Below, piece by piece: positions 8,625-30,986 of a stretch of 40,000 nucleotides of DNA. The stretch is from Terriglobia bacterium (GTDB taxonomy: Bacteria > Acidobacteriota > Terriglobia > Bryobacterales > Bryobacteraceae): positions 532,520-572,519 of the forward strand of contig CAWJHX010000009.1 in NCBI GenBank assembly GCA_963842825.1, written 5' to 3'. The notes beneath the pieces are model-generated. The model searched no databases. It had not been told where the DNA came from and worked only from the letters and a program-made list of their open reading frames with translations. A program made the translations under genes and the position numbers. How positions within the stretch are numbered: the stretch's first letter is position 1; each line of letters opens with the position of its first letter.

Positions 8625-8770
8625 TCGGCACTGGTTGCGCAAAGGACCCTTTGTGAGACACAACAAATTAGGTGGAGGACTTCGGAATCTGACTTAATCG
8701 ATAATCAAAGCATTCTCGAACAACCGCTAAATCCACCGCACAACTGTCACGCGGGGGAAGGAGTGAATTT

Positions 8771-9574
8771 ATGGGGGATGAGCGACTGCCTACACCAACA
8801 ACGCCGGTCGACCCCATTGCGGATGACGACCCCGTAAAGCTGCATCTTGAGGAGCGCGCTCAGCTCATCGACGCGGCCAGAGAGAACGCGCGAACGTTCG
8901 ACAAGGCTGTACTGACATTTGGCTCAGCCGTTTTCGGCTTCTCTATCGCATTCCTAAAGGATGTAGCCCCTCATCCTGCGCCCGGCACTCTGTGGTGGTT
9001 GGGTGGCGCATGGGCATCTTTCTCATTCGGTTTACTCAGCATACTTACGTCATTTCTCTGTGGCCAACAAGCTTTTCAGTTTGAAATTACCGAAAGTACC
9101 AACGCTCTGGCCCCAGGGTATCAGCGCAAAAAGAATCGCTGGAGTACGGCGGCCCAGTGCGGCAATGTTCTTTGCGTTGTGTTTCTCTTCTTTGGATTGC
9201 TGTGTTGGTCAAAGTTTGCATTTGATAACCTTAGCCGTGTAGACACCACGGCGACTACGGTTCAGACCCCGGTGGGAAAAGAGGGGCCAAAGGAAGGCGC
9301 ATTGAAACCTACGAAAGATACTTCAGACACTTTACCACTCAAAAAAACGTACACACCACCCCGAACACCGCCACCGCCTAACAGGCTGTTGAAGAATATT
9401 GGCGAGCTGAGCAGGAGAGCGTTCTTAGGGGCGAAGAAAGAGTTTCCGAGGGCGTGGGCAGGGGTTTCAGCGCCTGAGGAAGAGCCTCAGGCGGCGGCCT
9501 GGCGGCCTTTTACGCAGCCGCTTCCATCAGATTACGGATTCGGATCATATTATAGGCAGCGGCGGCGAAGGTGA
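8771..9574 (+). CDS. Membrane protein with proline-rich C-terminal tail; 3' end interrupted by IS insertion at 9381/9382 (reading frame continues into the IS)
   Basis: GGAAGGAG RBS upstream of the ATG at 8771. Predicted TM segments: VLTFGSAVFGFSIAFL, WWLGGAWASFSFGLLSILTSFL and NVLCVVFLFFGLLCW. From 9382 onward the translated sequence (NRLLKNIGELS...) is IS-derived. Removing the IS and one CTAA copy restores ...TYTPPRTPPPPKRNPPPPPSQKP*, ending at 10691. Confidence 0.6.
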   Translation: MGDERLPTPTTPVDPIADDDPVKLHLEERAQLIDAARENARTFDKAVLTFGSAVFGFSIAFLKDVAPHPAPGTLWWLGGAWASFSFGLLSILTSFLCGQQAFQFEITESTNALAPGYQRKKNRWSTAAQCGNVLCVVFLFFGLLCWSKFAFDNLSRVDTTATTVQTPVGKEGPKEGALKPTKDTSDTLPLKKTYTPPRTPPPPNRLLKNIGELSRRAFLGAKKEFPRAWAGVSAPEEEPQAAAWRPFTQPLPSDYGFGSYYRQRRRR

Positions 9575-10647: not shown

Positions 10648-10726
10648 CTAAACGCAATCCACCGCCACCACCACCTTCCCAAAAGCCGTAAGGTAGAAAC
10701 AGCACTCAAGGGCGAAACACACTCTT

Positions 10727-10859
10727 ATGAAAACCACGAACGATACCCCTGGCAAGTTGCCGCTAAAAGAGACCTACACGCCGCCACGGACGCCGCCACC
10801 ATCACCGAGACGGGCTCCTCCTACTCCTCCTCCCCCACCGCCACCATCTAAGAAAACTT
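10727..10859 (+). CDS. Small proline-rich ORF paralogous to the C-terminal tail of the 8771 gene
   Basis: Manual translation (below the track size cutoff): MKTTNDTPGKLPLKETYTPPRTPPPSPRRAPPTPPPPPPPSKKT*. It shares LPLK(K/E)TYTPPRTPPP with the 8771 product, but with many synonymous nucleotide differences. Coding status is uncertain. Confidence 0.3.
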
Positions 10860-11150
10860 AGTCGGTCACCTCGATGAACGGTCGAGGAAAACTCGCGGCA
10901 CGGCTCCGCCGCGAAAAACGGGCGAGCGAAGGACTCCTTTATGGAATGCGAGGATGTTGCGTGAGGAGCGTGGCGGCTCGGACGCGGCGAAGCTGGGCGG
11001 CTCAACGCCTTCTAAACGACTAGACTACTACATAAGAGCCTCGGACGATCGACAGCCAACGACGGGCGTTTCGCAAGGATAAGTTGAAACCTCGCCGGAA
11101 GACCAAGAAGCAAGCCCCCGCCCTGAGATTCAGGTAGCGATGTGAGGCAA

Positions 11151-14084: not shown

Positions 14085-14383
14085 TCCTCTTTTGTCAGAA
14101 CGAGAGGGTTACGACGGTGTCTGAAGATTCGCACCGAAACACTCTCGTGTGTCACACCTTTCAGCTAGGAAACTATTTTAGCGATTTGGCTATCTTTGAG
14201 CACAGCGAAGCCGGAGCCGCTGGAGCAAGCCGATGGCTGGTTTGCCCAAAACATTTCCACGGGCCCCCGGCGCATTTCCTCTCCGGATGGCATTCGTAGC
14301 CACACTTCCGTACGAAGATGACCAAAAAGCAATCTGAGTCTCCATTTAAATTGCGGGAAACATCGCGGTCTTCGACCAGTGAA

Positions 14384-16000
14384 TTATCGAATAACCTCCC
14401 GTTCAACTGGTGCGGGCTCCATTTCCGGATATCTTAAGATTCCGGTCAGTTCCGCCAGCTTCACCCAATGCCTCGGATGCGGAATTCGCTTGCCATTGCG
14501 AACGTTCGCAGCGTACGGCAGAGAAACGCCGAGCACCGATGCGATAGACGACCTCGTAACCGTCGCAAGCAATGGCACGATCTTGGCCCTATAAACATCT
14601 TCGTTCAACCAGGTGGGCAAGCTGGCCGCGTCCCAGTTCTTGGCAGCAGCAACATTCTTGCGCAGAGTAGCAGCGCGCCGGCTTTGAGCATCCGAAGAAT
14701 GTGCAACTGAGCGACCTTTCACGGCTGCAACTTTCATATGCTCTGTTGCGACGATCATCCCGCATGACTTGCAGTGTTCCGTTCCCCGGCGCGTTGTCTT
14801 TCCGCAAATGCGGCAAACGCCGTCCGGAAAGATTGGCCTAATCGAGGCATCGTCGAAACTGCTACCTTTCACGATCCGCTTCTGTTCTTGAGTCAGGCGT
14901 GTTGGTGTGGACCTGTAGCGCGCGTGTTTCGGACCTTTTGACCACAATGCCCGCGCCACATATTCCGCCAGCGGAGCTATTGCGCGACGCCACGTTTGTG
15001 CGGTTTCCGAAAGTAGCGCCGCGAGCGGTGCCATCAGGCGGCAGTTCCCATCGCTCTGCTCGAAAAACCATTCCCGCCTGAGCGGTTCGCGAGCGATCCA
15101 GTTCAACACGAAAGCGTCAACCTGAGGGCGAACCGGCTCCATCAGATCTGCAGGCAGACTATCGCGATGGGTAGCGTCCGCGTGCATAAAGCCAAGGCAC
15201 GGATCGAGACCTAGCATTGCCGTGGCGAGGCGGGCCTCGGCCTCCAGGATTGCGTAAAGGTAGTTCAGCATCGCATTGGCGGGATTCGATGCAAGTCGCG
15301 GTGATCCGGAAAGCGGAGATCTGCGGGCGCGAAACGTCCTCCAGTGATCCGGCATGCATTGCAAGTCCCTCTGCGGAAATTGAATCTGCACGTCTCGCCA
15401 CGCTCCCCAATATGCCGCGCCTGCTTGGGATTCAAGCAAACGGATCGAATCGAAAGCGCTCAGCGACGGAATCTCTGAACGAAGGCGGGCGATTGCATCT
15501 GCCGCGACCGGATTTCGAAGGTGTGAGCGCGCGATCTCTTCCTGACCTAGGAGTTTCCTGGTAATCAAATCGCGCGTGATTTGAATTCCGATGCCAGATT
15601 GCCGCGCGAGCGCCTGGGCGCGCCTGAGGTGGACTTCGGATTTCCGAACCGGCCCTGTAACGGTCAGAATCTTACCATCCCTTTCTAGCATGACGAACGC
15701 CGCGTTTTGATCCGCAAGCCAGCGCAACGCGGCCAGCGAAACCATTCCATCGTGACCAATGACCACGAGCCTTTCGAGCCCGTGAGCGACGCGCGGTAAT
15801 CGGGCGTAGCGACGATCAGCCGCGATGCCATCTTCCAGAATCAAATGGCCACTATCGACACGGACTTGAATTCCGTAGCCGAAAAGCGTTATGACGCCGT
15901 GGCGGGGTGTGATTGCTAATTGGGGATTTGCGGCCAGAATTTCTGGCACGTTGGATTTGCGCAGGCGTAGCCGATGCGCTACGGTTTTCGTAGCTGCCAT
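14384..16000 (-). CDS. cas1: Cas1-family integrase (casposase) with C-terminal zinc ribbon and HTH extension
   Basis: Cas1 N-terminal beta domain: GVITLFGYGIQVRVDSGHLILEDG...LERLVVIGHDGMVSLAALRWLADQNAAFVMLERDGKIL. Catalytic alpha domain: SNPANAMLNYLYAILEAEARLATAMLGLDPCLGFMHADATHRDSLPADLMEPVRPQVD (Glu / His / Asp-Glu triad context). C-terminal CRICGKTTRRGTEHCKSCG and an HTH-like SSIASVLGVSLPYAANVRNGKRIPHPRHW. GGAGGG RBS upstream of the ATG at 16000. No cas2 gene or repeat array in the window. Confidence 0.9.
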   Translation of the reverse strand: MAATKTVAHRLRLRKSNVPEILAANPQLAITPRHGVITLFGYGIQVRVDSGHLILEDGIAADRRYARLPRVAHGLERLVVIGHDGMVSLAALRWLADQNAAFVMLERDGKILTVTGPVRKSEVHLRRAQALARQSGIGIQITRDLITRKLLGQEEIARSHLRNPVAADAIARLRSEIPSLSAFDSIRLLESQAGAAYWGAWRDVQIQFPQRDLQCMPDHWRTFRARRSPLSGSPRLASNPANAMLNYLYAILEAEARLATAMLGLDPCLGFMHADATHRDSLPADLMEPVRPQVDAFVLNWIAREPLRREWFFEQSDGNCRLMAPLAALLSETAQTWRRAIAPLAEYVARALWSKGPKHARYRSTPTRLTQEQKRIVKGSSFDDASIRPIFPDGVCRICGKTTRRGTEHCKSCGMIVATEHMKVAAVKGRSVAHSSDAQSRRAATLRKNVAAAKNWDAASLPTWLNEDVYRAKIVPLLATVTRSSIASVLGVSLPYAANVRNGKRIPHPRHWVKLAELTGILRYPEMEPAPVEREVIR

Positions 16001-16100
16001 GGGAGTTTTACCCTCCTTTGGTTGTCAGGGCTCGCCGCCTGCTCGCAACAGACAGCAGGCCCGAACTACTTGTAATATCTATAACTTAGAATACCGCAAA

Positions 16101-16679
16101 CTATCCTTTTTTGCTCGGTTTAGAAGCCTTTCCGAGCAAAGAATTCCGGCGTCTCATTTCCGTTTCGTATTTTCGTCGGAGTGTTCTTGGCTTGAGCCCA
16201 ACCTCGGGAGCAAAACGCGAGTAAAGGTTTTTCAAGGATTCGGCTTCCTCTCCCTTCGCACGGTTTATCTTGTCCACAATTTCACCAATCTGCACGCTGC
16301 TCGCCAGCTTCTCCGACGGCCCACCCAATGGTTTTAGTGTATTTCTTGCTTTATCGAGGAGATGGCGAAATCCCGGCGCGATTGATCTAAAGATTAAACG
16401 CACCCTATCAAAATCTTCCGGCTTCGGCTCTTCCAAACTGAGCATTAAATTCTCAAATTTCTCACGAGTTTCGATTCGATCGAGATACCCTTCAAATGTC
16501 TTTCGGTTGTCGGCACCGGGTAACGACCTTCCGAAAACTGGCAGGAAAAGCGCACGGAACGCAGGAGATCGGAGCGCGGCTCGCACACGGACTACCACGT
16601 CTTCGTAGGTCTCCGACTGGGTCTCGGCAATGAGCCGATCAATTTCCTTCCAGATTTGTTGGAGAGTTTCGCGTGTCAC
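16101..16679 (-). CDS. Hypothetical protein upstream of and co-oriented with cas1 (casposon core)
   Basis: 192-aa ORF with a GTG start, charged and helical in character, with a basic C-terminus (RTLRRKYETEMRRRNSLLGKASKPSKKG). No family recognised. Confidence 0.5.
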   Translation of the reverse strand: MTRETLQQIWKEIDRLIAETQSETYEDVVVRVRAALRSPAFRALFLPVFGRSLPGADNRKTFEGYLDRIETREKFENLMLSLEEPKPEDFDRVRLIFRSIAPGFRHLLDKARNTLKPLGGPSEKLASSVQIGEIVDKINRAKGEEAESLKNLYSRFAPEVGLKPRTLRRKYETEMRRRNSLLGKASKPSKKG

Positions 16680-16825
16680 TGCGTGCTGCGACCCCTACTT
16701 GGATTGAACCCAGCGTACCAAAGAGCAAAACCGGCTGATGCCGGATGGCCAAGACACCCCCCATCTGGACCCGGCCCTTTTTTACCTCTACAACCCTGGT
16801 GTGACCTGTTGGCGAAAGGAAATTC

Positions 16826-17380
16826 ATGAAAAAGCAAAAACCAAAATCGAAATCGAATCAAAGAACAAAAAGAGATCTGATTCAAACGCGTACAGCATCC
16901 GCAAATAAACGACGCTCCGGCAAAAAGGCGCAGCTTCAGCAAAGTTTTCCCAAAGTGACCAGCGCGCTCTCAAAAATGCGAGCCGGTGCTTCGCTGCGAA
17001 AAGCCTCGCGAGAGTCCGGGGTGGCAGCCCGTACGGTGCTGAAACGAGCCGCTTCTGTCTTGCGCAAAAACAAGAGCGGGCGATACACCGCGAAGGCGGG
17101 CGATCGTCTGGTTCGGGTGCTCAAGATTCCAACACCCCAAGGTCCGGAGGAGATCAGTGTTCGCGGTCTGCGCGCCGCAAGTTTGCTGGGACGCTATTGG
17201 GCTGCCTTAGACAATTACTACGAAACGGGGGACATCTCAGCACTTAAGAAATTTGAGGGTGAGTCCGTTACTGCGGTCGATGGCACCAAGTACCCGTTGC
17301 TGACGGATCTCAATTTGCTTAATCGTCTAGGGTACGCGGGAGTGCTTTCGTTCGAATCCCTCTACGGGAGGAACGCGTAA
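16826..17380 (+). CDS. Basic HTH-containing hypothetical protein, first gene of the HNH-PolB operon
   Basis: Lys/Arg-rich N-terminus (MKKQKPKSKSNQRTKRD...). HTH-like LRKASRESGVAARTVLKRA. The TAA stop is followed immediately by the ATG of the next gene (taaATG at 17378-17383). Confidence 0.55.
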   Translation: MKKQKPKSKSNQRTKRDLIQTRTASANKRRSGKKAQLQQSFPKVTSALSKMRAGASLRKASRESGVAARTVLKRAASVLRKNKSGRYTAKAGDRLVRVLKIPTPQGPEEISVRGLRAASLLGRYWAALDNYYETGDISALKKFEGESVTAVDGTKYPLLTDLNLLNRLGYAGVLSFESLYGRNA

Positions 17381-17899
17381 ATGCCAAAGAAAATGCCCCA
17401 ACGAGATCCCATCAGTGCCTCCCAGCGAAAATCTGCCGCCGCTCGGCGTGTAGGGAAGAACGCACAGTGCACGCACTGCGGTGAAACGCGGCCTGAAGCC
17501 CTGATCGCGAATAGCAAACCACTCACATGCGCGGAATGCCAACGGAGGAGCCAAGGGAAATCGATCATAGATGATCACCACGTCGCCATGCGGGCAAACA
17601 ATCCGACGACGATGCCGGTTCCCGTGAACGATCACCGCGCCGAACTCAGCGCCGCCCAACATGATTGGCCCAAAAAGACGCGGGAGAATCCCGATGGCAG
17701 TCCGCTCATCGCCGCTGCCGGGTGTATTCGCGGATTCATGGACCAGCTTTTCTACTTGGTTGAAAAATTCTTGCACTGGACTGCTGGGATGCTTGAAGAC
17801 CTCGATTCTTACCTAATCGAAAAACTGGGGCCACAGTGGTGGTTACAGACTCCGCTGAAACAATTCGCGCCCCACGGAGGCTGCGATGCCAAATCCTAA
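17381..17899 (+). CDS. Zn-finger / HNH-like nuclease protein
   Basis: CTHCGE...(x19)...CAECQRR, followed by IIDDHHVAMRANNPTTMPVPVNDHRAEL (an H-N-H-like arrangement). It overlaps the PolB start by 14 nt. Confidence 0.5.
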   Translation: MPKKMPQRDPISASQRKSAAARRVGKNAQCTHCGETRPEALIANSKPLTCAECQRRSQGKSIIDDHHVAMRANNPTTMPVPVNDHRAELSAAQHDWPKKTRENPDGSPLIAAAGCIRGFMDQLFYLVEKFLHWTAGMLEDLDSYLIEKLGPQWWLQTPLKQFAPHGGCDAKS

Positions 17900-20800
17900 G
17901 CCAACTCCGTTGACGCTTGCCCTTCGGGTCTATCCCGAGCCCACGAACGCCAAGCGGGAACCGGCATCGCCCAAGCCATGGAAGTGCCCAAAGGCGATGC
18001 TCGTTTTTGACACCGAGACGCGGACCGACGCGACGCAACGCTTGACCTTTGGAAGCTACCGCTATTTTCATGAAGGCCGGTGCCTCGAAGAGGGCTTGTT
18101 CTACGCTGACGATTTGCCGGAAAAAGACCGTCGAGTTCTCGAAGAATACGTCGCAACGCACAGGCCTGAGACGGCTGGTGACGGCGTGCGGAATCTGAAG
18201 TTTCTTTCGCGCAGCCAGTTCGTTGACAAGTTCTATAGCTCCGTCTATAAGGGCCGTTGTCTTCTGGTTGGCTTCAATCTTCCCTTTGATCTCTCGCGCA
18301 TCGCCTGCGACTTCACAACCGCGCGCGGTCGCTTCGCGGGTGGTTTCTCCCTCGGCTTTTGGCTGTGGACGGATAAGACGGGCCGCGAGCGGGGGGATCA
18401 TTTCAGGCCCAGAATTGGGATCAAGCACATTGACAGCAAGCGCGCGCTGAAAGGTTTCACTGCGCGGAACGGCCCTGATCAAACGGACTTGATTCCAGAA
18501 GATTGCGAGACCGGGAGCCCCCAGAAGGGCTATAAGTTTCGGGGGCACTTCTTGGATCTGCGCACGCTGGCATTTGCGCTGACGGATAAGGGCTATTCTC
18601 TTGAGGCGGCTTGCGAAGCCTTCGGAGTGGAGCACGGAAAGCAGAAAGTCGCCAAGCATGGCGAGGTCACGGAAGAATACATCGACTACAATAGGCGCGA
18701 CGTTTTGGCCACTTCCGAACTCGCGGTGAAGCTCCTTGAAGAATACGACAAGCATCCAATCACGCTTCAGGCGACGAAGGCATATTCCCCGGCCTCCATC
18801 GGCAAGGCCTACTTGCGGGCGATGGGAATCGTGCCAATCCTGGAACGGCAACCGGGCTTCCCGAAGGAGTATCTCGGATACGCGCAGTCGGCCTTCTTTG
18901 GCGGACGAACGAGCGCACATATTCGAAAGCTTGCGGTCCCTGTTGTTTACACGGATTTTCTTTCGATGTATCCCACGGTAAACAGTCTCATGGATCTATG
19001 GCGCTTCGTTACTGCGCGTGAGATTCGGATCGTGAAGAACTGCAAGCGGGAGACCGAAGCATTCCTGGGCCGCGTGACCGTCGACGATCTTTTCAAGCCC
19101 GCCACGTGGAAATACCTGCCCGCGTTCGTCCGCATAATCCCGGACGGCGACATCCTGCCGACGCGCGCGAAATACAGCACCGTGAGCAACGATTGGCAGG
19201 TGGCCGTGAATCATGTGTATGCCGACAAGGACAGTTCGATCAATCAGGAACTGTGGTTTTCGCTTCCGGATATTGTTGCTTCGGTAATTCTGACGGGGCA
19301 AGTTCCCAAGATCGTGGATGCGTTCCGGATTGAGCCGAAAGGTAAAATGCAGGGGCTTACTCCAACCAAGCTGCGCGGATCGATTGAGATTGATCCAACG
19401 CGTCAAGACTTCTTCAAAGTGGCGATTGAAGAACGGAAACGCCTGCATTCGCACGCCGATCTTCCCGAAGCCGAAAAGAAGCGGCTCGACAAGGCCCTCA
19501 AGGTGCTGGCGAATGCCGCAAGCTACGGCATTTACGCCGAAATGAATCCTCAGGAGACGGATGAAAAGACGCAGGTAACGTGCCACGGCGTCGACTGCGA
19601 ACCGTTCACGTGCCGTGTTGCCCATCCCGACGTGCCGGGCGAATATTGCTTTCCGCCGCTTGCATCCTTAATAACAGGGGCAGCGCGTCTCATGTTGGCG
19701 CTGTTGGAACATTGCGTCTCGGCTTTGAATGGCACATACGCGATGGAGGACACCGATTCCATGGCGATTGTCGCGACCAAACGCGGCGGATTGGTGCCCT
19801 GTCCGGGAGGGTCCTTCAAGACCAAAGACGGTCGACCGGCGGTGAAAGCGCTCTCCTGGAAGCAGGTTGAAGAAATCTCGGAACGATTCGCGGCGCTGAA
19901 CCCGTACAATCGCGAAGCGGTGCCAGGATCAGTTCTCAAGATCGAAGAGGATAATTTTGATGCAAAAACAGGTCATCAGCGACAGCTCTCCTGCTTTGCA
20001 ATCTCGGCGAAGCGTTACACGCTATTCACGCTCGACAAGAGTGGTGAGCCCGTGATGCTGCGAAAGGAAGCCAACAACAAAAGTGACCGCTGGTCTCAGC
20101 ATGGCCTCGGGCATCTTTTGAATCCAACTGACACAAGCAGCGCGGATCGGGATTGGATCGGGCAAGTGTGGCTGAACATGTTGCGCAGATCTTATCGTCT
20201 GCCCGTTCAAAAGCTCAGTTTCGAAAAGTTACCCGCTGTTGGCCGCGTCAGTGTGGGCAGTCCCGCCACAATGCGCTCTTTTTCGAGTTTCAACGCTGGG
20301 AAGGCGTATTCCCAGCAAATTAAGCCCTTCAACTTTGTTCTGACTTGCCAAGTAAAGCAGCTTGGACATCCCAACGGCGTCGATCCAGAACATTTTCATC
20401 TGATCGCGCCGTCCGATGGCGAACCCGGCCGGTGGATCGAGACGGATTGGATCGACCAATATACCGGCAACCTATACAGGATCACAACCCAGGGTCACTA
20501 CGGAAGCCAAGATGCTGCGCGTGTAAAAACGTACGGCGAGATTCTGCGCGAATACGAATTTCATCCGGAGGCAAAGTGCGCCGACCAAGACGGAAATGCC
20601 TGCGAAAGGCGTGCGACTGGTTTGCTTCAACGAAGGCACGTCATAATTGACGGCATACGATTCATTGGAAAAGAATCGAATGCTCTGGAAGACGTTGAGG
20701 CCGGGCTGGTTCACTCCGCAGAAAGTGCCTACACCGAATACTGCGATCCGAAATACGACGAATGGACTACGAAAATCGCACCTGCATTGAAGAAAGCTCC

Positions 20801-20951
20801 GCTCTCGGTGCTGATCAAGCAAACGGGTCTTTCGCGCCGGGCGTTGATCAGTCTGCGCGTGGGTGACAGCAGGCCGCGCCGGAAGAACTGGGAACTAATC
20901 GCCGAAATACTCCGAAAACTTGGCGCTATCGGAAATTCGCGGCAGTCCTGA
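17886..20951 (+). CDS. polB: Family B DNA polymerase with 3'-5' exonuclease domain (casposon PolB)
   Basis: ExoI is LVFDTETRTD (FDTET at 18006-18020). ExoII is GFNLPFDLSRI and ExoIII is YIDYNRRDVLAT. Pol motif A is DFLSMYPT (18954-18977), motif B is KVLANAASYGIYAE (19500-19541) and motif C is YAMEDTDSMAIV (19737-19772). The protein is 1021 aa. Confidence 0.9.
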   Translation: MPNPKPTPLTLALRVYPEPTNAKREPASPKPWKCPKAMLVFDTETRTDATQRLTFGSYRYFHEGRCLEEGLFYADDLPEKDRRVLEEYVATHRPETAGDGVRNLKFLSRSQFVDKFYSSVYKGRCLLVGFNLPFDLSRIACDFTTARGRFAGGFSLGFWLWTDKTGRERGDHFRPRIGIKHIDSKRALKGFTARNGPDQTDLIPEDCETGSPQKGYKFRGHFLDLRTLAFALTDKGYSLEAACEAFGVEHGKQKVAKHGEVTEEYIDYNRRDVLATSELAVKLLEEYDKHPITLQATKAYSPASIGKAYLRAMGIVPILERQPGFPKEYLGYAQSAFFGGRTSAHIRKLAVPVVYTDFLSMYPTVNSLMDLWRFVTAREIRIVKNCKRETEAFLGRVTVDDLFKPATWKYLPAFVRIIPDGDILPTRAKYSTVSNDWQVAVNHVYADKDSSINQELWFSLPDIVASVILTGQVPKIVDAFRIEPKGKMQGLTPTKLRGSIEIDPTRQDFFKVAIEERKRLHSHADLPEAEKKRLDKALKVLANAASYGIYAEMNPQETDEKTQVTCHGVDCEPFTCRVAHPDVPGEYCFPPLASLITGAARLMLALLEHCVSALNGTYAMEDTDSMAIVATKRGGLVPCPGGSFKTKDGRPAVKALSWKQVEEISERFAALNPYNREAVPGSVLKIEEDNFDAKTGHQRQLSCFAISAKRYTLFTLDKSGEPVMLRKEANNKSDRWSQHGLGHLLNPTDTSSADRDWIGQVWLNMLRRSYRLPVQKLSFEKLPAVGRVSVGSPATMRSFSSFNAGKAYSQQIKPFNFVLTCQVKQLGHPNGVDPEHFHLIAPSDGEPGRWIETDWIDQYTGNLYRITTQGHYGSQDAARVKTYGEILREYEFHPEAKCADQDGNACERRATGLLQRRHVIIDGIRFIGKESNALEDVEAGLVHSAESAYTEYCDPKYDEWTTKIAPALKKAPLSVLIKQTGLSRRALISLRVGDSRPRRKNWELIAEILRKLGAIGNSRQS

Positions 20952-21365
20952 GCCGCGCGGAGACGCCGAAAGCTTTCCACCGTGACATAACGGCGGATTC
21001 TCGGCGGAAACATCGGACGGCCCTGGGTATATGCTGGTCGGAAGAACGTGCTTCGGCTGGGACTAATCCGCTGGCTTCTCCTCTACCTCCTCGCAGCGGC
21101 CGGGTCTGTTCGCCTGCTGGCCGGGAGACGGGTCTGGGATTTCAAGACGAACAGGGAGGTGGTGTCGTGGCAGCTCAGATTTATAACTTACTCGACCACG
21201 CTCGATGGGGACGGTTTCAATCGGGACAGAAAACCCATCCCGTGCGCGATCTCGCCGGACGGTGAATACGTTGTTGAGGGTGGCGACGGAAAGTATGTTA
21301 TCGTCTACGACCGAACGAGGTCGCGACGAGAGGAGATTTCGAGGTTCTGCGCGAAAGCGGCGGAC

Positions 21366-21563
21366 CTATCTCTTTGTGCTTCGCTTCTTCCCGCGCTTCG
21401 CTTCCGCAAGAGCGGCCGCAATCGGGCCACGGTCTCTCTTCGGGGTCTTCGGGTCGCGCAGGTCTTTGCCAGCCTGCGAGGCAACTTTCTTGGAAGTCGG
21501 CATGCCCTCATTATACACCCAATAAATCATTTCCATACGTTCCTGTTTGTACTTCAGGCCCAT
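21366..21563 (-). CDS. Small basic hypothetical protein (65 aa)
   Basis: MGLKYKQERMEMIYWVYNEGMPTSKKVASQAGKDLRDPKTPKRDRGPIAAALAEAKRGKKRSTKR. The codon pattern looks more coding-like than the Arg/Leu/Ser-rich antisense half of ORF 21048..21602. There is no obvious RBS. Confidence 0.3.
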   Translation of the reverse strand: MGLKYKQERMEMIYWVYNEGMPTSKKVASQAGKDLRDPKTPKRDRGPIAAALAEAKRGKKRSTKR

Positions 21564-21610
21564 AAGGGACGTTATGTTGCTCTAAACTTGGAAAGGAGGT
21601 AGTCTCCTTT

Positions 21611-22327
21611 TTGATGAACAACCTCCCGAACAGCCCACCGGCCGGAGACACCTGCTACGCATGTGAGCGACGGGCCACCACGAGGGAACACGCGCCACCA
21701 AAAAGCTTTTTCCCGATGGAAAAACGCAAGAATTTAATTGTCGTTCCATCCTGCTCGGTCCACAATTGCGATAACTCTCCGGATGTCGAATACGTTCGAA
21801 ACGCAATCGCGTTTCTCGCGGGCCTAAACGGAACTGGCGAATTATTGATCGACACCGCAAAGCGATCGTTCGATCACAGTCCCGCCCTGTTTAAGCGGAC
21901 GTTTCAATCCTTCGTTGTCCATTCCCAAGAAGAACAAGTGGGCACATACAAGGCCGACCTACCACGGGTTAGAACAGTAATGACAGCGGTGGCCCAGGCG
22001 CTCCATTATCGAGATCAGCATCAAAAGTGGGGCCGTTGGCACGTGTTCGTACCGAGCCTCGGGTCAGAGGCATCGTTAATTCACAAACGCTCTGATGGCT
22101 GGGAAGCGTTCAGGGACTTATTAAGCCGCATCCCCTATGTAGATCAGCCCACGGCTGAACCGGAAGTCTTCAGATACGGAAGCCACGCACTTGATTGGGG
22201 CTGGATATATCAGTTCACCTTCTACGGCGGCTTCGTCGTCAATGCGTGGATGCTTCGCGAAGACGCTGATGACCCATATGCCACAGCAACCGAAACGAGA
22301 CACCCAGAGCGCGCGCCAAACCAATGA
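21611..22327 (+). CDS. HNH (beta-beta-alpha-Me)-like N-terminal domain protein (casposon cargo)
   Basis: CYACERRATTREHAPPKSFF...NLIVVPSCSVHN fits a CxxC...EH...N...CxxHN HNH-type finger. AAAGGAGG RBS at 21592-21599. The start is the TTG at 21611 or the ATG at 21614. The C-terminal ~170 aa are unassigned. Confidence 0.45.
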   Translation: MMNNLPNSPPAGDTCYACERRATTREHAPPKSFFPMEKRKNLIVVPSCSVHNCDNSPDVEYVRNAIAFLAGLNGTGELLIDTAKRSFDHSPALFKRTFQSFVVHSQEEQVGTYKADLPRVRTVMTAVAQALHYRDQHQKWGRWHVFVPSLGSEASLIHKRSDGWEAFRDLLSRIPYVDQPTAEPEVFRYGSHALDWGWIYQFTFYGGFVVNAWMLREDADDPYATATETRHPERAPNQ

Positions 22328-22523
22328 ACGAGGTGTCATTCACCCGAGGGCACGGTGACCCCGAGCTTCCGGCACTCATACAGCCGCTTTTCATGCGATC
22401 CATTTCGCACTAGACATTTGCAACATGCGAGACCCTTTGTTTTCGGGCCTTCGGCGAACGTTGCAAAACTTACCCTTTGCGAAACATGACACGGCCAAGC
22501 CCTTCCCGAGGAATGGTGATTCC

Positions 22524-24620
22524 TCACCTATTCTCATTAGGGGTCAACACCCGGATTCGATTGTGGTCGGTCAAGTAAACTACGCCACGAGCGTCTACCG
22601 CTACACTGTTTGGAAAAATCGGTGCCTTGAGCGCGGGCCCACCGTCCCCAGAGAATCCTGTTTCATGATTTCCGGCTATGGTGTGAATGATTCCATCTCG
22701 CGTTATTTTGCGTATACGCCAATTGGCGCGATCTGCGATGTAGACATTCCCTTGGGTGTCGATAGCCAGCGAATCTGGATCGCCCAATCCAGCCTTGACA
22801 GCGGGCCCATCATCTCCACTAAATTCCTGCTTACCGATACCAGCTACGGTGCGAACAATACCATCTCGATCCAGCCTCCGAATGCGGTGGTTGAAGGTGT
22901 CCGCTACGTAAAGGAGGCCCTCACGGTCTATGGCCACACCGTGTGGGAAATCCAACCTGATAGAACGAGCCGGTCCGTCTCCGCTAGGACCCTTCTCACC
23001 GTTTCCGATTATCGTGCGTATGATTCCTTGCGGATCGATCTGGCGAACACGATTGTTCTCCCGATCCGCAAAATATACATCGCCCTGGGCATCAACAGCC
23101 AACCCCATAGGATTCGCTAGCTCTGCCGTCAACGCTGGTCCGTTATCCCCCGCAAATCCCTTCTTGCCAGTCCCGGCGATTGTTTGAATGCGACCGTCAG
23201 CCGATACCTTCCGGATTCGATTGTTCAAGGAATCGGAAATGTAGACGTTCCCTCGGAGATCTGCTGCGACCCCACTGGGATTGTCGATGTTGGCCTCAAC
23301 AGCCGGTCCTCCGTCTCCACTGAACTGCGGGGGTGGACCAGTCCCCTCCATTCTGATTGTCGGGATGCCCTTGCCCGCGATTCTGGAAAAGCGCCCATCG
23401 CGAGTGATGCGCACGATACGATTCCTCCCCGTGTCGGCGATCAAGATGTCCCCCGATGGACCGACGGCGACGCTCCAAGGATTCAACAGTCGCGCCAACT
23501 CGGCGGGACCGCCTTCTTTTTCCTCGGGCAAGGCGCTCAAACCGGCGACCACAGTTACCGCGCCGCCGGGTGCCATTCGCAGCACACGGTGACCGAGGGT
23601 ATCAGCCACGTAGATTGTGCCCTTTTCGTCGACGACAACATCGGCTGGGGAATGGAGGCCCGTTTTGAGCGGGTCGCCGTCTTCCACAATTGGACCGTTC
23701 TTTGCACCCAGAAGCGTGGTGATGATTCCATTTCCGTCAACCTGCCTAATGTTCCCGGCGGCAATAAGTAGATTGCCCTGTGGATTAAAGGCGACCGCCA
23801 TCGGGTAGAAAACGACAGCAGCTAACGCGGAGCCACCGTCGCCGGTTGACGGCGCACCTCGATTTACACCTTCGCCTGCGATGGTCGTTACTGTCCGCGA
23901 TGGGTCAATTCTGGCGGTCCGCGCATGGTTTCGATCTGCAATGTAAATGGCTCCATCCGGACCCAAAGCGATACCTCGGGGACTCGCCAAAGGGCTTACC
24001 GGATTGCGCGGTCCCACTCCTGGTTGTCCCACGACGCTCGTGATAACTCCGTCGGTGTTTATCTTGCGAACGGTATTGTTCATGCTCTCCGTGAAGTAGA
24101 GAACATCCGAGCGGTCGATGGCAATGCCATTCGGCCAGGAAAGCTTTGCCTTTGCTGCTGGCCCGCCATCGCCATCATAGCCGTGCTCTCCCGTTCCGGC
24201 GAACGTCGAAATGATTCCGTCCGGAGTGACGCGACGAACGCGGTGGTTCATGGTATCGGCAATATACAAGTTACCGTGTGAATCGAGCGCGATACCTCTT
24301 GGGAACAATAGCTGCGCCTGGATTGCAGGCCCTCCGTCCCCTCCGTATCCCTGCGCACCGTTGCCCGCGATAGTTCTGATTCGCCCCGACGCGTCAACGA
24401 CCCGCACGACCTGGTTCCCGGTATCGGCGATGTACAGGTCTCCATCGCGACGGAGCGCCAGCCCTCCAGGCTTGTTTAGCCTGGCTTGGGTCGCTGGACC
24501 ACCATCGCCGGTGTAGCCATCGAGTGTCGATCCTGCGCCAGTGAGCGTAGTGATTGTGTACGTACCTTGACCCAGGAGCGCGGAGGCAAACACAACCAGC
24601 CATAATGGTCTAAGGCTCAT
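22524..24620 (-). CDS. Secreted NHL-repeat protein (GDGGPA-motif repeats, probably two six-bladed propellers); casposon cargo next to TIR-R
   Basis: Start placed at the ATG at 24620 (MSLRPLWLVVFASALLGQG signal peptide). The track ORF start at 24722 lies inside the TIR. There are more than 10 repeats of the pattern GDGGPAxxAxLxxPxGxAxDxxGNLYIADxxNxRIRxV. Confidence 0.8.
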   Translation of the reverse strand: MSLRPLWLVVFASALLGQGTYTITTLTGAGSTLDGYTGDGGPATQARLNKPGGLALRRDGDLYIADTGNQVVRVVDASGRIRTIAGNGAQGYGGDGGPAIQAQLLFPRGIALDSHGNLYIADTMNHRVRRVTPDGIISTFAGTGEHGYDGDGGPAAKAKLSWPNGIAIDRSDVLYFTESMNNTVRKINTDGVITSVVGQPGVGPRNPVSPLASPRGIALGPDGAIYIADRNHARTARIDPSRTVTTIAGEGVNRGAPSTGDGGSALAAVVFYPMAVAFNPQGNLLIAAGNIRQVDGNGIITTLLGAKNGPIVEDGDPLKTGLHSPADVVVDEKGTIYVADTLGHRVLRMAPGGAVTVVAGLSALPEEKEGGPAELARLLNPWSVAVGPSGDILIADTGRNRIVRITRDGRFSRIAGKGIPTIRMEGTGPPPQFSGDGGPAVEANIDNPSGVAADLRGNVYISDSLNNRIRKVSADGRIQTIAGTGKKGFAGDNGPALTAELANPMGLAVDAQGDVYFADRENNRVRQIDPQGIIRTIIGNGEKGPSGDGPARSIRLDFPHGVAIDREGLLYVADTFNHRIRRLDRDGIVRTVAGIGKQEFSGDDGPAVKAGLGDPDSLAIDTQGNVYIADRANWRIRKITRDGIIHTIAGNHETGFSGDGGPALKAPIFPNSVAVDARGVVYLTDHNRIRVLTPNENR

Positions 24621-24706
24621 CGAACACCAGCCCCCTTTGGGAACATCTTTCTGCCCTATTCTACTTTGCCGGACACACGGGTGGGTCCGACGACTAAAGA
24701 GTGTGG

Positions 24707-24742
24707 GGGGGTGCGGTTTCAAACCCCTCTATCTCCTAACCC
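24707..24742 (-). repeat. Right terminal inverted repeat (TIR-R) of the casposon
   Basis: The reverse complement matches TIR-L at 35/36 positions (see 7764..7799). Confidence 0.9.
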
Positions 24743-24756
24743 GTCAATGCGGTCGG
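24743..24756. repeat. Right copy of the 14-bp direct repeat GTCAATGCGGTCGG (putative TSD)
   Basis: Identical to 7750..7763, and it abuts TIR-R. Confidence 0.85.
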
Positions 24757-24939
24757 CGACGGCGCCGGGAGAGCTCAGAAGAAGGTTACAGTGCCAGCCG
24801 TGACCTCAATTTTGGGATTGGCGCCCACCATTCCGAACGGCGCGAGGACACACAAGATGCGCGGGTGTATACTCTTCCTGTTGTCCACTCTAACGGCTAT
24901 GCGCGCAGTCCTCTGCGACGCCGATAAGGAGCTTTTTCC

Positions 24940-26187
24940 ATGGAGATGAAGACGTACCGGTCGCGCACGATCTGGGTTGCGGCGATCACACTCTGCCTTC
25001 TGGCCGTTTCGCTGGCGCCCGCGGCGCTTGCGCAGCCCGTGCCGGTCTATAAAGTGGACCCCTTCTGGCCGAAGATGCCGCTAAAGAACAAATGGATCAT
25101 TCAGGGCGTGCCCACGATGGTCACCGACAAGGACGACCACATCTGGGTGATGAACCGCCCCCGCGACATCAATCCGGACGAAAACGGCGCGTCGACCAAT
25201 CCCCCGCGCACCGATTGCTGCATCGCGGCGCCCGCCGTCCTGGAGTTCGATACCGCGGGCAATCTGCTGAACGCCTGGGGCGGTCCCGGCTATGTGGAGG
25301 GCTGGCCGGCGAAAGGCATCCCCCGTCCGGGCGCGGCTTCGGAACACAACATTATTGTGGATCGCGAAGGCAACGTGTGGATGTCCGGCAGCAGCCAGGG
25401 CGATAGCATCCAGAAGTTCACCGCCGACGGGAAGCTCCTGTGGGATTTCGGGCATCGCGCGCCGCGGCCACCCGCCGCACGGCTCCCTGAAAATAATCAG
25501 AACACCGACGTGTTCCCCGGCGGCATTTTCTTTTTCGATCTGGATGAGAACGCCCAGGAGATTTACATCGTCGACGCCAAGCGCGTGCTGGTTTACGGCT
25601 ACGACGGCAAGTTCAAGCGCGGCTGGGGCGGGCACGGCATTCCTCTGAGCGAGATCGACAACAACCCGACGCCTCCCTACGATACGTCGGGGCCGCCGCC
25701 CGACCAGAAGCAGTTCGCCCCGGCGCTGCACTGCGTGCACTTTTCAGTCGACAACCTGGTTTATATATGCGAGCGCGGCAGCGACCGCGTGCAGGTGTTC
25801 ACCAAGGACGGCAAATTCGTTTCGAGCTTCTTCGTGCATCCCTCGACGATCGCCCGCGGCAAGGAATGCGGCGGACCGGGCAGCCTGTTGTATGGGATGT
25901 GCGGAACGATCTACAACCTGACGTTCTCCCACGACAAGGACGAAAAGTACGTGTTCATCGCCGACGGGACCAACGATAAGGTCTGGATTCACGACCGGAA
26001 GACAGGGGAAAAGGTCGGCGAAATCGGCGACAACGGCCGCATGGCCGGCATGTTCCACTGGATCGACGCGATCGCCATCGATTCCAAGGGCAACATGTAT
26101 ACCGGCGAGGTCGACACCGGCAAGCGCGTGCAGAAGTTCATTCTCATGAACGGAGACAAGGCCTCGCGTCCACGCCCGCACGAATAG
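24940..26187 (+). CDS. Secreted NHL-repeat six-bladed beta-propeller, peptidylamidoglycolate lyase (PAL)-like
   Basis: Signal peptide: MKTYRSRTIWVAAITLCLLAVSLAPAALA. Blade motifs resemble the PAL domain of PAM: EHNIIVDREGNVWMSG...IQKFTADGKLL, VDNLVYICERGSDRVQVFTKDGKFV (compare PAL CVADRENGRIQCF) and IAIDSKGNMYTGEVDTGKRVQKFIL (compare PAL VASEDGTVYIGDAHTNTVWKFTL). AAGGAG RBS upstream. Confidence 0.6.
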   Translation: MEMKTYRSRTIWVAAITLCLLAVSLAPAALAQPVPVYKVDPFWPKMPLKNKWIIQGVPTMVTDKDDHIWVMNRPRDINPDENGASTNPPRTDCCIAAPAVLEFDTAGNLLNAWGGPGYVEGWPAKGIPRPGAASEHNIIVDREGNVWMSGSSQGDSIQKFTADGKLLWDFGHRAPRPPAARLPENNQNTDVFPGGIFFFDLDENAQEIYIVDAKRVLVYGYDGKFKRGWGGHGIPLSEIDNNPTPPYDTSGPPPDQKQFAPALHCVHFSVDNLVYICERGSDRVQVFTKDGKFVSSFFVHPSTIARGKECGGPGSLLYGMCGTIYNLTFSHDKDEKYVFIADGTNDKVWIHDRKTGEKVGEIGDNGRMAGMFHWIDAIAIDSKGNMYTGEVDTGKRVQKFILMNGDKASRPRPHE

Positions 26188-27285: not shown

Positions 27286-27711
27286 TTAATCTTCAAATAG
27301 CGGTAGCGACTCGCCGTGGGGATCCACCAGCTTGCGAATCCAGAGCGTGTTTCCGCCACTCTGCACGCGGAATCCGGTCACTTCAATCACGTCGCCCGGC
27401 TGCAGGGTTTTCTTGGTCCACCCGGCGCGAGCCAGCTTATTCGGGGCCGTCAGCTCGCCCTGCCATTTCTCCATCTCGCCCTTGTCGTTCTTCACGTCAA
27501 AGTAGATTTGCACGTGCGGGTTCAAGAAAACGAATTCCGTGACCGTGCCTTTTACCGTCACGGCTTTCGAGGTATCGAATGCAGCCGTTCCATGATGCGC
27601 GAACATCGGGACGGCGATCATAAGTGCAACCACTGCGGTGGCGAAAACCATAAAAAATCTTTGAGTCGCCTGTTTCACAAAGAAACCTCCAATCGTTCCG
27701 TATTTTCGCAT
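27286..27711 (-). CDS. DUF6152-like small secreted protein
   Basis: Signal/TM MVFATAVVALMIAVPMFA followed by HHGTAAFDTSKAVTVKGTVTEFVFLNPHVQIYFDV...WQGEL...LARAGWTKKTLQPGDVIEVTG, the typical pattern of this family. The start could alternatively be the ATG at 27651. Confidence 0.6.
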   Translation of the reverse strand: MRKYGTIGGFFVKQATQRFFMVFATAVVALMIAVPMFAHHGTAAFDTSKAVTVKGTVTEFVFLNPHVQIYFDVKNDKGEMEKWQGELTAPNKLARAGWTKKTLQPGDVIEVTGFRVQSGGNTLWIRKLVDPHGESLPLFED

Positions 27712-27777: not shown

Positions 27778-28947
27778 CTACTTCGCCCCGGCTCTCTTGG
27801 TCTGGGGAGGCGCGGGTTTCACGAACTTCGCGGCATCGACGTTCGCGTTCGGCTGAACCTCGCTCAGTTCGATGATCACTCGGCCGTCGACCCAACTGAT
27901 GACACGCTTGAAGGGCATTTTGACGCCGGCCACGTCCCGGTAATCCGAGTAGTCCACCTGGGTGGGGGTCAATCCAACGGGCGAATCCGCGAAGCGCAGC
28001 GAACGCATTAGCAGGTTGGTTTTCTCATCGAAGTACAAATCGATCGGATATTTTCCGTTCATGGTGCCCTGGATAAGCACGACATCCTTATCGTCGATGG
28101 TCGTCGGAAGCAGCGAGCGCCACTGCGTGAGTGCCTGCTTGATGCGCGCGGGGAAGAAAAGTTCGCCGTCGAGCTTGGCTCCGTCCAGATCGCCGCCCGT
28201 CATCTCGAACACCTGTACGGGCCGGTCCGTAGTCGGTCCGGCGATCCAGCCCATGGTTCCATCGAAAGTCGTGATGGTGTCGCCGCTGCCCCCATGGGAA
28301 ATGGTCATGTGCTGGTTGGGAGCCTTGGCGTACATTTCCATGGGCACTCTTTCATCCGCGAAGCCCTGGTAAATTCCTTTGGCCGTGAAGCTCGTCAGCG
28401 CGGCGATTTTCTGCATCCCGCCGATGGCTTGCAAGTAACGATCGAGAACCTGTTCGGGCGCAGCGGTCTTCGGAGCCGCCGCGACCATGGTGTCGGGCGT
28501 GTCGTCGGGCGGCACCGGGCCGTAGAGATCCACCAGGCTCGGCGTGACCTTGGGCTTCTGGCCGCCGCGATGGCACGAATAACAGGTAAGCTCGCGGCGT
28601 CCGTTGAAGTAATTCTTGTTGATGGTATTGACCATCGCGATCATGCGCCGCGCGGTGTTTTTGTGCTCGTTGTCCTCGGCGAACTTCGACCAATCCCCGG
28701 CGCTTTCGAGGACGTGACAATACAAACAGTTCTCGGCGAGCGACGACGAGAAAAATCCCATGGTCGCCATGAATTCGTCGACTGGGATACCCTTCAATAC
28801 TTTAACGTTCTTGAACGCCTGATCGGAGAGAAGCGGCTTCGCGGGCGCCGGCGTTTGGGCGCTGGCCACGCTGGATGCCGACATAAACAGCACCATCGCG
28901 GCAATGAGGAAAAGAATAAATTGCCCCGAATATAGGCTTTGCCACAA
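27778..28947 (-). CDS. c-type cytochrome (photosynthetic-reaction-centre cytochrome c subunit-like N-terminal domain) with C-terminal beta-rich domain
   Basis: Two heme c motifs, CLYCH and CYSCH, in FKNVKVLKGIPVDEFMATMGFFSSSLAENCLYCH...TARRMIAMVNTINKNYFNGRRELTCYSCHRG. Signal-like N-terminus. TTG start at 28947. Confidence 0.75.
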   Translation of the reverse strand: MWQSLYSGQFILFLIAAMVLFMSASSVASAQTPAPAKPLLSDQAFKNVKVLKGIPVDEFMATMGFFSSSLAENCLYCHVLESAGDWSKFAEDNEHKNTARRMIAMVNTINKNYFNGRRELTCYSCHRGGQKPKVTPSLVDLYGPVPPDDTPDTMVAAAPKTAAPEQVLDRYLQAIGGMQKIAALTSFTAKGIYQGFADERVPMEMYAKAPNQHMTISHGGSGDTITTFDGTMGWIAGPTTDRPVQVFEMTGGDLDGAKLDGELFFPARIKQALTQWRSLLPTTIDDKDVVLIQGTMNGKYPIDLYFDEKTNLLMRSLRFADSPVGLTPTQVDYSDYRDVAGVKMPFKRVISWVDGRVIIELSEVQPNANVDAAKFVKPAPPQTKRAGAK

Positions 28948-30266: not shown

Positions 30267-30281
30267 ATCGAGGTGGCTCGA

Positions 30282-30986
30282 ATGGCACGTGTGATCGCGG
30301 TCGGGTTGCCGCATCACATCACGCAGCGCGGCAACGGTCGGCGCGACGTCTTCCTCACCGATGCGCTCAGGCAGACCTATCTCAGTCTGCTGCGCGAGCA
30401 GGCCGAGCATTATCACTTGCGCATTCTTGCGTACTGCCTCATGACGAATCACGTCCATGTCGTAGCGCTGCCGCTCACGGACAACGCGATGGCGGGTACC
30501 CTTCGGCACGCGCACGGGCGATTTGCTCAATACTGGAACACGGAGCGCGGAATGGTCGGCCACATGTGGCAAAATCGCTACTATTCGTGCGCGTTGCAGC
30601 CATCGAGAGCATGGTCCGTGATCCGGTACGTGGAACTGAATCCTGTGCGAGCGGGGATGGTCCGGTGCGCCGAGGAGTATGCTTGGTCGAGCGCCGCTTC
30701 GCATGTAGGCGGTCTCGATGCCAGTGGCCTGCTGGACATGGATTGGTGGCGCAGGCACTGGACCGAGGGATGCTGGGCCGACGCGCTAAAGTGGGCGGGA
30801 GTAGACCCCGGCGCGGATGCCATTCGCAAAGCCACCCACACGGGGTGTCCCTTCGGAGACCGGGAGTTCGTCGCGGGTCTCGAGCGGAGGCTCGGACGAA
30901 AGTTGGAGGCGCGGCGAGGTGGCCGCCCGAAGAAAGTCGCTCAGGATACAATGCAAGTGCCGCTGGCGGACTCGGCGCCTGCGTGA
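30282..30986 (+). CDS. REP-associated tyrosine transposase (RAYT), IS200/IS605-like Y1 HUH family, intact copy
   Basis: MARVIAVGLPHHITQRGNGRRDVFLTD...YHLRILAYCLMTNHVHVVALP...HMWQNRYYSCAL...YVELNPVRAGMV...YAWSSAASH is the typical RAYT/Y1_Tnp pattern. It is flanked by REP cores in inverted orientation (30208 + and 31027 -). Confidence 0.85.
   Translation: MARVIAVGLPHHITQRGNGRRDVFLTDALRQTYLSLLREQAEHYHLRILAYCLMTNHVHVVALPLTDNAMAGTLRHAHGRFAQYWNTERGMVGHMWQNRYYSCALQPSRAWSVIRYVELNPVRAGMVRCAEEYAWSSAASHVGGLDASGLLDMDWWRRHWTEGCWADALKWAGVDPGADAIRKATHTGCPFGDREFVAGLERRLGRKLEARRGGRPKKVAQDTMQVPLADSAPA

Follow-up and report, generated by a model that had tools for sequence, protein, structure and literature searches.

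Peptide amidation in animals is carried out by one bifunctional enzyme, PAM, and peptidylamidoglycolate lyase (PAL) is its lyase domain. The gene considered here encodes a secreted propeller protein related to PAL and lies in a stretch of 40,000 nucleotides from a Terriglobia bacterium (contig CAWJHX010000009.1, positions 532,520 to 572,519 of the forward strand), which was analysed as a whole and is referred to as the window. A casposon separates this gene from one resembling peptidylglycine alpha-hydroxylating monooxygenase (PHM), and the first-pass annotation of the locus had proposed that the two genes form a split bacterial counterpart of PAM, perhaps uncoupled by the insertion.

Bacterial PAL homologues with demonstrated lyase activity are already described, for example ExiPAL from Exiguobacterium sp., and their natural role is stated to be unclear (PMC10900485). 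In ExiPAL, H95, H210 and H309 are predicted zinc ligands and Y178 and R225 catalytic residues, with D310 also included in the catalytic set (PMC10900485). For prokaryotic PALs with lyase activity, US patent 9,096,843 is cited in PMC10900485. Such homologues are already in use in protein chemistry; the PALME platform, for instance, pairs ExiPAL with rat PHM (PMC9155641).

Compared with these systems, the window's gene falls into a variant class of PAL-like NHL propellers that is new. The best explanation as a whole, in which reasonable but not high confidence is placed, assigns it to a propeller family that is greatly expanded in Acidobacteria and homologous to PAL. In the reading preferred here, which is considered fairly probable, the protein is a periplasmic or secreted variant-class PAL-like propeller whose partners are a DUF6152 protein and a cytochrome-c fusion, and whose adjacency to the PHM-like gene is specific to one lineage. 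A sister propeller class with the full PAL residue set is the more interesting lead for the PAM-like idea.

The propeller gene and its candidate active site

24940 to 26187, plus strand: secreted six-bladed NHL beta-propeller of the PAL superfamily, variant class, recognised from the open reading frame (ORF), its translation, an AlphaFold model, Foldseek and a residue map to rat PAL

The ORF is intact, encodes 415 aa and starts with ATG, and a good ribosome-binding site, AAGGAG, lies 8 nt 5' of the start. Both its extent and the two blade peptides quoted from it earlier, ICERGSDRVQVFTKDGKF and GNMYTGEVDTGKRVQKFIL, were confirmed in the translation. The N-terminus looks like a Sec-type signal peptide (...APAALA/QP). 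A vicinal Cys-Cys (C93-C94, in TDCCIAAP) is invariant in the propellers. The AlphaFold model (predicted local distance difference test score, pLDDT, 85) has six four-stranded blades, and a Foldseek search with it matched NHL propellers, including PAL 3fvz at E 1e-11; this entry holds only rank 15 in the list, yet it gives the longest alignment there.

Raw sequence similarity is less specific. The best solved matches in a phmmer search against the PDB were the NHL domains of Thin, TRIM2 and Brat, and PAL was not found in that search at E <= 10. Searches of Pfam and NCBIfam returned only generic propeller matches below thresholds (SGL, DUF5128, SBBP and ScyF), the ScyF score being 47 bits, far under the cut-off of 350. 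Comparison of family profiles by hhalign was more informative: the profile of the window's propeller family reaches rat PAL with a probability of 76% (E 2e-5), and a paralog class reaches it with 98.3% (E 1e-14, 280 columns). Because this paralog class bridges the window protein and PAL, the propeller is probably a PAL homologue by transitivity. The earlier description of the protein as PAL-like is therefore upheld as regards its place in the PAL branch of NHL propellers, although the resemblance of its blades to those of PAL appears weaker than had been stated. In the JGI labels, the window's own family is called 'hypothetical protein', and the paralog family (P0244 onwards) 'DNA-binding beta-propeller fold protein YncE'.

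The map of active-site residues rests on hhalign, MAFFT and 124-sequence alignments against rat PAL; the rat PAL and rat PHM sequences that were used are identical to the PDB chains. The counterparts of the rat PAL residues in the window protein are as follows.

R533: R73, conserved
H585: H136, conserved
Y654: gap, absent
H690: H264, conserved
R706: R279, conserved
H786 (third zinc ligand): D376, invariant, replaced
D787 (structural calcium site): A377, replaced

In other words, two of the three zinc-binding histidines of PAL have equivalents and the third is an invariant aspartate; likewise, both substrate-binding or catalytic arginines are matched, while the catalytic tyrosine falls in a gap. 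The three zinc histidines and the tyrosine were among the checks named in the first-pass annotation, and on both points the protein departs from PAL. Within the propeller family R73, H264 and D376 are invariant, and H136 and R279 are at least 90% conserved. Both arginines are kept in all 15 sampled family members, and the gap at the Tyr654 position is shared by the window protein and 13 of these 15. An arginine following the canonical blade aspartate is also seen in some generic NHL repeats, and the R73/R279 match is weak when taken alone.

The placement of the candidate ligands is regular. According to DSSP on the model, H136, H264 and D376 are each the second residue of the innermost strand, in blades 2, 4 and 6, and the ligands of PAL have the same three-fold arrangement. 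A nearly invariant histidine, H373, stands three residues before D376 and lies outside the strand in the model. It was considered as the third ligand instead of D376 and provisionally rejected on strand register and on spacing, D376 and Y387 being 11 residues apart like H786 and Y797 of PAL.

The protein is thus a probable PAL relative with a candidate His-His-Asp metal site and without the catalytic tyrosine. In the mechanism proposed, H136, H264 and D376 would form this metal site at the mouth of the central channel, and R73 and R279 would flank it as substrate-binding or catalytic arginines. The propeller might then be a metal-dependent lyase or hydrolase whose substrate is small and bears a carboxylate, its chemistry being related, not identical, to that of PAL. 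The gene probably encodes such a metal-dependent lyase or hydrolase; for annotation it should nevertheless be named a PAL-like NHL propeller of unknown activity and not be entered as a lyase.

Genomic partners of the propeller and the breakpoint at the casposon

Neighbourhoods were collected in a propeller-centred sample of 77 genome loci. A DUF6152 gene occurs within 3 kb of the propeller in 29 of these loci and within 10 kb in 44, and a second propeller within 3 kb in 22. Conserved co-occurrence of the window's propeller family with the PHM-like gene, which the idea of a split pair had presupposed, was not observed: the PHM-like gene lies within 3 kb in 2/77 loci and within 10 kb in 8/77, and is never adjacent. 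A census of 124 propellers, sorted by active-site signature and covering neighbours within 1.5 kb, gave the following classes.

RH-HRD (the window's class), n = 34: DUF6152 in 17, cytochrome fusion in 7, PHM-like gene in 0 (in the window the casposon intervenes, and the truncated copy in contig L003 is left out of the count)
RHYHRH (full PAL set), n about 23: PHM-like gene in 11, unk312 in 9, HupE/UreJ in 6
RQFHRD, n = 38: usually the second propeller beside the window's class

The conserved partners of the window's propeller are consequently DUF6152 and the cytochrome-c fusion, both encoded just downstream of it, and not the PHM-like gene.

27286 to 27711, minus strand: DUF6152 protein with a predicted mature His-His N-terminus, the neighbour most often conserved beside the window's propeller class
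27778 to 28947, minus strand: fusion of a c-type cytochrome (PufC-like monohaem domain) with a domain of unknown family about 250 aa long; it is conserved, like the propeller and DUF6152 beside it, in loci L004 and L007

Comparison with related loci places a break between the two supposed partners. The closest relatives of the propeller (L004-L007) are 88-89% identical to it, and the downstream DUF6152 and cytochrome-c fusion recur beside them, as seen in L004 and L007. Their upstream neighbour is a different, divergent membrane-protein gene (junction in L005 and L007), and their homology to the window starts only at the propeller's own promoter. On the other side, orthologous PHM-like loci (L168-L173) are 86% identical and continue with the same unk312 and methyltransferase-glycosyltransferase genes; upstream of their PHM-like gene stand a cytochrome-fusion paralog or other genes, and no propeller. 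A 110-aa ORF upstream of these orthologous PHM-like genes was considered as a DUF6152 gene and rejected, since it is not a DUF6152. The cytochrome-c fusion paralog, 51% identical to that of the window, is the divergent neighbour of the PHM-like genes in L168, L169, L171, L172 and L173. Cytochrome fusions of the same family are found in different lineages next to both modules, that of the propeller and that of the PHM-like gene.

Only one further contig, L003, has the pair. It represents the empty site: its PHM-like gene is 91% identical to that of the window, the N-terminus of its propeller is 82% identical, and the two are divergent neighbours without a casposon. It carries a single target copy (GTCAACGCGG) and about 345 bp of unrelated DNA between the two genes. 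At L003 634-1221, this extra intergenic DNA holds a 62-aa ORF with a weak match to Flp/Fap pilin (E 0.002). Genes of this contig are fragmented, with an asparagine synthase in four pieces and the propeller cut at 185 aa, which suggests that the assembly carries frameshift errors.

The junction between the PHM-like and propeller genes is accordingly a synteny breakpoint, and the pairing is common only to the window and L003. The divergent adjacency predates the casposon, as had been proposed and as the target-site duplication and the empty site agree in indicating; related genomes do not keep it, however, and other genes occupy the junction in L005, L007 and L168-L173. Because it is confined to the window and L003 and lies at a synteny breakpoint, the adjacency is lineage-specific and not a conserved two-enzyme unit.

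The insertion and its surroundings comprise the following features.

7764 to 24742, no strand assigned: casposon of 16,979 bp with Cas1 and a family-B polymerase, recognised from terminal inverted repeats, target-site duplication and Pfam matches; it separates the PHM-like gene and the propeller gene
7750 to 7763, no strand assigned: left copy of the 14-bp target-site duplication, GTCAATGCGGTCGG, covering the greater part of the -35 box in the promoter predicted for the PHM-like gene
24743 to 24756, no strand assigned: right 14-bp copy with the same sequence, abutting the terminal inverted repeat
7726 to 7754, minus strand: predicted sigma-70-type promoter of the PHM-like gene, TTGACT-17-TAAACT, intact beside the gene
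24845 to 24873, plus strand: predicted propeller promoter, AGGACA-17-TATACT, intact, its -10 region kept in L003, L005 and L007

Every component expected of a casposon is present, namely a Cas1 integrase (14384-16000, minus strand, Pfam E 9e-40), a family-B polymerase (17886-20951, plus strand, DNA_pol_B_2 at 26.2 bits, just over the gathering score of 25.8), terminal inverted repeats of 36 nt (7764-7799 and 24707-24742, 97% complementary) and the target-site duplication. The position of the element between the two genes, and the spacer of about 240 bp that had been calculated for the uninterrupted site, proved correct: removal of the element with one copy of the duplication leaves 58 + 183 = 241 bp between the starts of the gene at 6329-7705 (minus strand) and the propeller gene.

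The insertion point lies between two back-to-back predicted promoters, 9 nt upstream of the -35 box predicted for the PHM-like gene. Since the duplicated target contains most of that -35 hexamer (TTGAC), the PHM-like core promoter is preserved by the duplication itself, and both predicted core promoters survive the insertion. The casposon could part either of them from an upstream operator. A shared control region is, in turn, made less plausible by the poor conservation of the spacer, which measures 241 bp in the window and about 586 bp in L003.

Several further observations concern these elements. Among the cargo of the casposon are a WD40 protein of 977 aa (11151-14084), whose gene contains periodic repeats of 126 nt (11262-11969), and a secreted NHL-repeat protein of 732 aa (22524-24722). 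In an acidobacterial metagenome-assembled genome (locus L016, 1-1119), a Cas1 homologue with 50% identity is encoded about 9 kb away from a different propeller gene, and related elements may thus be distributed more widely among Acidobacteriota. An IS200-like Y1 transposase ORF (30273-30986, plus strand, Pfam Y1_Tnp E 3e-11) is located downstream, at about 4 kb from the propeller module. As to DUF6152, its proteins mostly have a predicted mature His-His N-terminus (..FA/HHG..) and an internal NPH motif, and may be histidine-brace-like metal-binding proteins, as these motifs suggest. Their genes form tandem arrays of up to five copies near propellers, with many copies in L025, L058, L063, L079 and L080. 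No solved or annotated relative of DUF6152 was found, and literature searches turned up no mention of it.

The PHM-like gene and the operon of a sister propeller class

6329 to 7705, minus strand: cytochrome-c-fused protein with a PHM/DBH-fold copper monooxygenase-like domain and CxxCH at residues 49-53, assigned by Foldseek and motifs (DBH, dopamine beta-hydroxylase)
5490 to 6317, minus strand: unk312, a secreted protein of unknown family whose likely start is the ATG at 6317, recognised from its translation as the downstream partner of the PHM-like gene

The gene to the left of the casposon is best described as a cytochrome-c-fused copper monooxygenase candidate of the PHM/DBH fold, as far as its predicted structure indicates. 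Its AlphaFold model is of moderate quality (pLDDT 71) and has two beta-sandwich domains; PDB ranks 1-31 in the Foldseek search are all DBH or PHM (E 2e-10 to 1e-7). Candidate ligands of the CuH site are H201, H202 and H263, and those of the CuM site H339, H341 and M423. In an alignment of 92 family members, including paralogs down to 20-40% identity, CxxCH is present in 92/92 sequences, H201/H202 in 90, H263 in 92, H339-x-H341 in 90 and D-E-M423 in 90. Both the order and the spacing of HH, H, HxH and (DE)M resemble those of the CuH and CuM ligands in PHM and DBH, the intervals being 61, 76 and 82 residues as against 64, 70 and 70 in PHM; the ligands are thus assigned by motif and order and not by an alignment with statistical support. 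Local motifs are likewise similar (HMHLRGK vs HTHHLGK and VDEMAHAW vs SDEMCNLY in PHM).

Sequence comparison does not recover this relationship. The protein does not match Pfam Cu2_monooxygen or Cu2_monoox_C at E <= 0.01, and Pfam and NCBIfam give only a weak cytochrome-c match at the CxxCH motif. No PHM or DBH appears in PDB sequence searches with the protein or with its family profile, which finds only cytochrome c, and hhalign against rat PHM returns a probability of 0.3%. With no support from the profile comparison, it is the fold and the motifs on which the assignment to PHM/DBH is based. Moreover, with HxH and DEM as anchors, the counterparts of the PHM residues that hold the glycine carboxylate (R240, N316 and Y318) are Q337, H425 and W427, which 87-89 of the 92 sequences share. 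Since the peptidylglycine-binding residues are replaced, it is unlikely that the substrate is bound as PHM binds peptidylglycine. The earlier label of the gene as PHM-like thus stands for the fold and the HH/H/HxH/DEM motifs and does not extend to peptidylglycine binding. A further difference from PHM and DBH is the fused N-terminal c-type cytochrome domain, which would stand in for ascorbate as electron donor.

The unk312 gene lies directly 3' of the PHM-like gene in 46 of the 53 loci with room for it, and is thus a near-obligatory downstream partner. Its product, of about 275 aa, has a C-terminal vicinal Cys-Cys (YQCCW) and no Pfam, NCBIfam or PDB match.

A second sample was centred on the PHM-like gene and contained 80 metagenome loci, 45 of them with at least 1.3 kb of upstream sequence. 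In 11 of these 45, the PHM-like gene is immediately preceded by a propeller gene of the same orientation, with gaps mostly of 21-192 nt and one of 488 nt. These propellers are the paralogs, here called prop2, that bridge the window protein and PAL; they are 33-39% identical to the window's propeller, which shows 35% identity to the class, and they have every PAL catalytic residue (IIHR, NHG, DGY, VHC, CDR and VHS). Like the window protein, prop2 members (for example L107 5412-6653, L131 8663-9925 and P0241) have an N-terminal PxF/YxVDPxWPKPLPN motif, the vicinal Cys-Cys and the same fold. The two classes differ in their company: prop2 is operonic with the PHM-like gene and unk312 and divergent from a HupE/UreJ-type membrane protein, whereas the window's class travels with DUF6152 and the cytochrome fusion.

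The order of the operon is a divergent HupE/UreJ_2 membrane-protein gene followed by the genes for the PAL-like propeller, the PHM-like protein, unk312 and a pyrroloquinoline quinone (PQQ) dehydrogenase. It is represented by L131 (7170-14383) and L174-L177 (3485-10596), and further by L092, L100, L107, L108, L114, L116, L117, L119, L125 and L130. When five proteins of the full PAL class were looked up, two (L174-L177) were found in the operon and three (L164-L167) without the PHM-like module. The link between the full-PAL propeller and the PHM-like gene is consequently recurrent and not obligatory. Literature searches found no characterised bacterial PHM; they also found no described bacterial PHM/PAL operon, though prokaryotic PHM- or PAL-like genes may have been mentioned earlier.

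There is, therefore, a bacterial PHM/PAL-like operon, and the window's pair is probably not that operon. Judged from its gene content, the operon is a candidate bacterial PAM-like pathway. The idea of a split PAM-like pair, which was not supported for the window's propeller class, thus survives at the level of the family, where the full-signature paralog is a recurrent operon partner of the PHM-like family. A wider proposal is offered tentatively and is regarded as possible but rather doubtful. Under it, Acidobacteria would possess a periplasmic PAM-like pathway running on respiratory electrons, composed of a PAL-type zinc lyase with the full residue set, a cytochrome-fused PHM-fold monooxygenase, unk312 and a PQQ dehydrogenase, encoded in an operon beside a HupE/UreJ-type metal transporter. 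The pathway would serve oxidative N-dealkylation or C-terminal processing of an amide, and the window's His-His-Asp propeller would be a neofunctionalised offshoot, recruited beside the same monooxygenase in one lineage. If true, it would place bacterial PALs in a natural context and point to a prokaryotic origin of both halves of PAM.

Competing readings and comparison with known systems

Several points weigh against the reading preferred here, that of a variant-class propeller partnered by DUF6152 and the cytochrome fusion. The candidate His-His-Asp site is deduced from strand register and alignment and not from measured distances, and the equivalence of H264 and H690 hinges on a one-residue hairpin indel that is present in some alignments. 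H373 or H267 could be the real third ligand or a general base, which would make the site closer to that of PAL. The locus samples are centred on the query families, and the frequencies drawn from them are conditional, not genome-wide. Additionally, the PHM-like gene stands beside two propeller classes in different lineages and shares neighbours with them (DUF6152, cytochrome fusions and PQQ dehydrogenases), so that the window's pair could still cooperate.

Cooperation in its strongest form is the split pair of the first-pass annotation, in which hydroxylation of a glycine-extended or related amide would fall to the PHM-like protein and dealkylation of the resulting carbinolamide to the propeller, and the casposon would have disrupted their shared control. 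The genes were indeed adjacent before the insertion, as the empty site in L003 documents, the left gene has a PHM fold, and the propeller keeps four of the six scored PAL active-site residues, both arginines among them. Another propeller class is operonic with the same PHM-like family, and the 8/77 loci with a PHM-like gene within 10 kb look above an order-of-magnitude guess at chance, for which no background rate was computed. Against this, the equivalent of Tyr654 is absent and that of His786 replaced, the PHM residues for the substrate carboxylate are not conserved, and no PHM-like gene lies within 1.5 kb of the 34 census members of the window's class, a count that leaves out the split window and the truncated L003 copy. 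Other genes also occupy the junction, both in the closest relatives and at the orthologous PHM-like loci, the window and L003 have no conserved intergenic region in common, and each gene has its own predicted promoter, both of them intact. The split pair is on these grounds judged unlikely.

A looser association would see the cytochrome-c fusion, DUF6152, the propeller, the PHM-like/unk312 module and PQQ dehydrogenases as a periplasmic redox gene set, whose members share related substrates or a supply of electrons or metal and do not catalyse consecutive steps. The same families recur in shuffled combinations, a cytochrome-fusion paralog adjoins the orthologous PHM-like genes, and PQQ dehydrogenases adjoin both modules. 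In L103, moreover, a DUF6152 gene directly precedes the PHM-like gene (about 100 nt), and in L084, L089, L090, L096 and L153 one lies 1.2-2.7 kb upstream of it. These families are, however, very abundant and multi-copy in Acidobacteria, which makes loose clustering weak evidence; this reading is given little credence.

A reading of the propeller as an NHL scaffold without catalysis, with a binding or structural role in the periplasm and only its fold in common with PAL, is improbable: its best solved sequence and fold matches are the non-enzymatic NHL domains of TRIM, Thin and Brat, and its Pfam matches fall under the gathering thresholds, but the polar residues at the PAL active-site positions are invariant or nearly so across the family, a paralog class has the complete PAL catalytic set and reaches 98% against PAL in hhalign, and bacterial PAL homologues are active in vitro (PMC10900485, PMC9155641).

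The analysis has practical consequences. The residue signature sorts likely true PAL-type lyases (RHYHRH) from variants (RH-HRD and RQFHRD) in a family with thousands of soil sequences, and the recurrent operon gives candidates for a bacterial PHM and for an ascorbate-independent electron supply. Caution is called for in the window itself, where the pair, though adjacent before the casposon, is probably not that PHM/PAL-like system.

Among known systems, the NHL domains of TRIM proteins, Thin and Brat, together with ScyF (NCBIfam NF035926), have the best raw sequence or fold scores, through the generic NHL repeat motif. They differ from the propeller in being RNA- or protein-binding or uncharacterised, and in having no conserved His/Arg constellation at the channel mouth. 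ExiPAL is a bacterial NHL propeller homologous to PAL, as the window protein probably is; it has the full catalytic set, whereas the window protein is without the tyrosine and the third histidine, a comparison made by published residues and not by sequence alignment.

Rat PAL (PDB 3FVZ) is likewise a secreted six-bladed NHL propeller, and the equivalents of its R533, H585, H690 and R706 occupy the same positions in blades 1, 2 and 4 of the window protein. Identity between the two is only about 14-25%, and the window protein exceeds rat PAL by about 90 residues, having inserts and the vicinal Cys-Cys. It has an aspartate in place of the zinc ligand H786, an alanine in place of the calcium ligand D787 and no equivalent of Tyr654. 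Unlike PAL in animal PAM, the window's propeller is neither fused to PHM nor conserved beside it.

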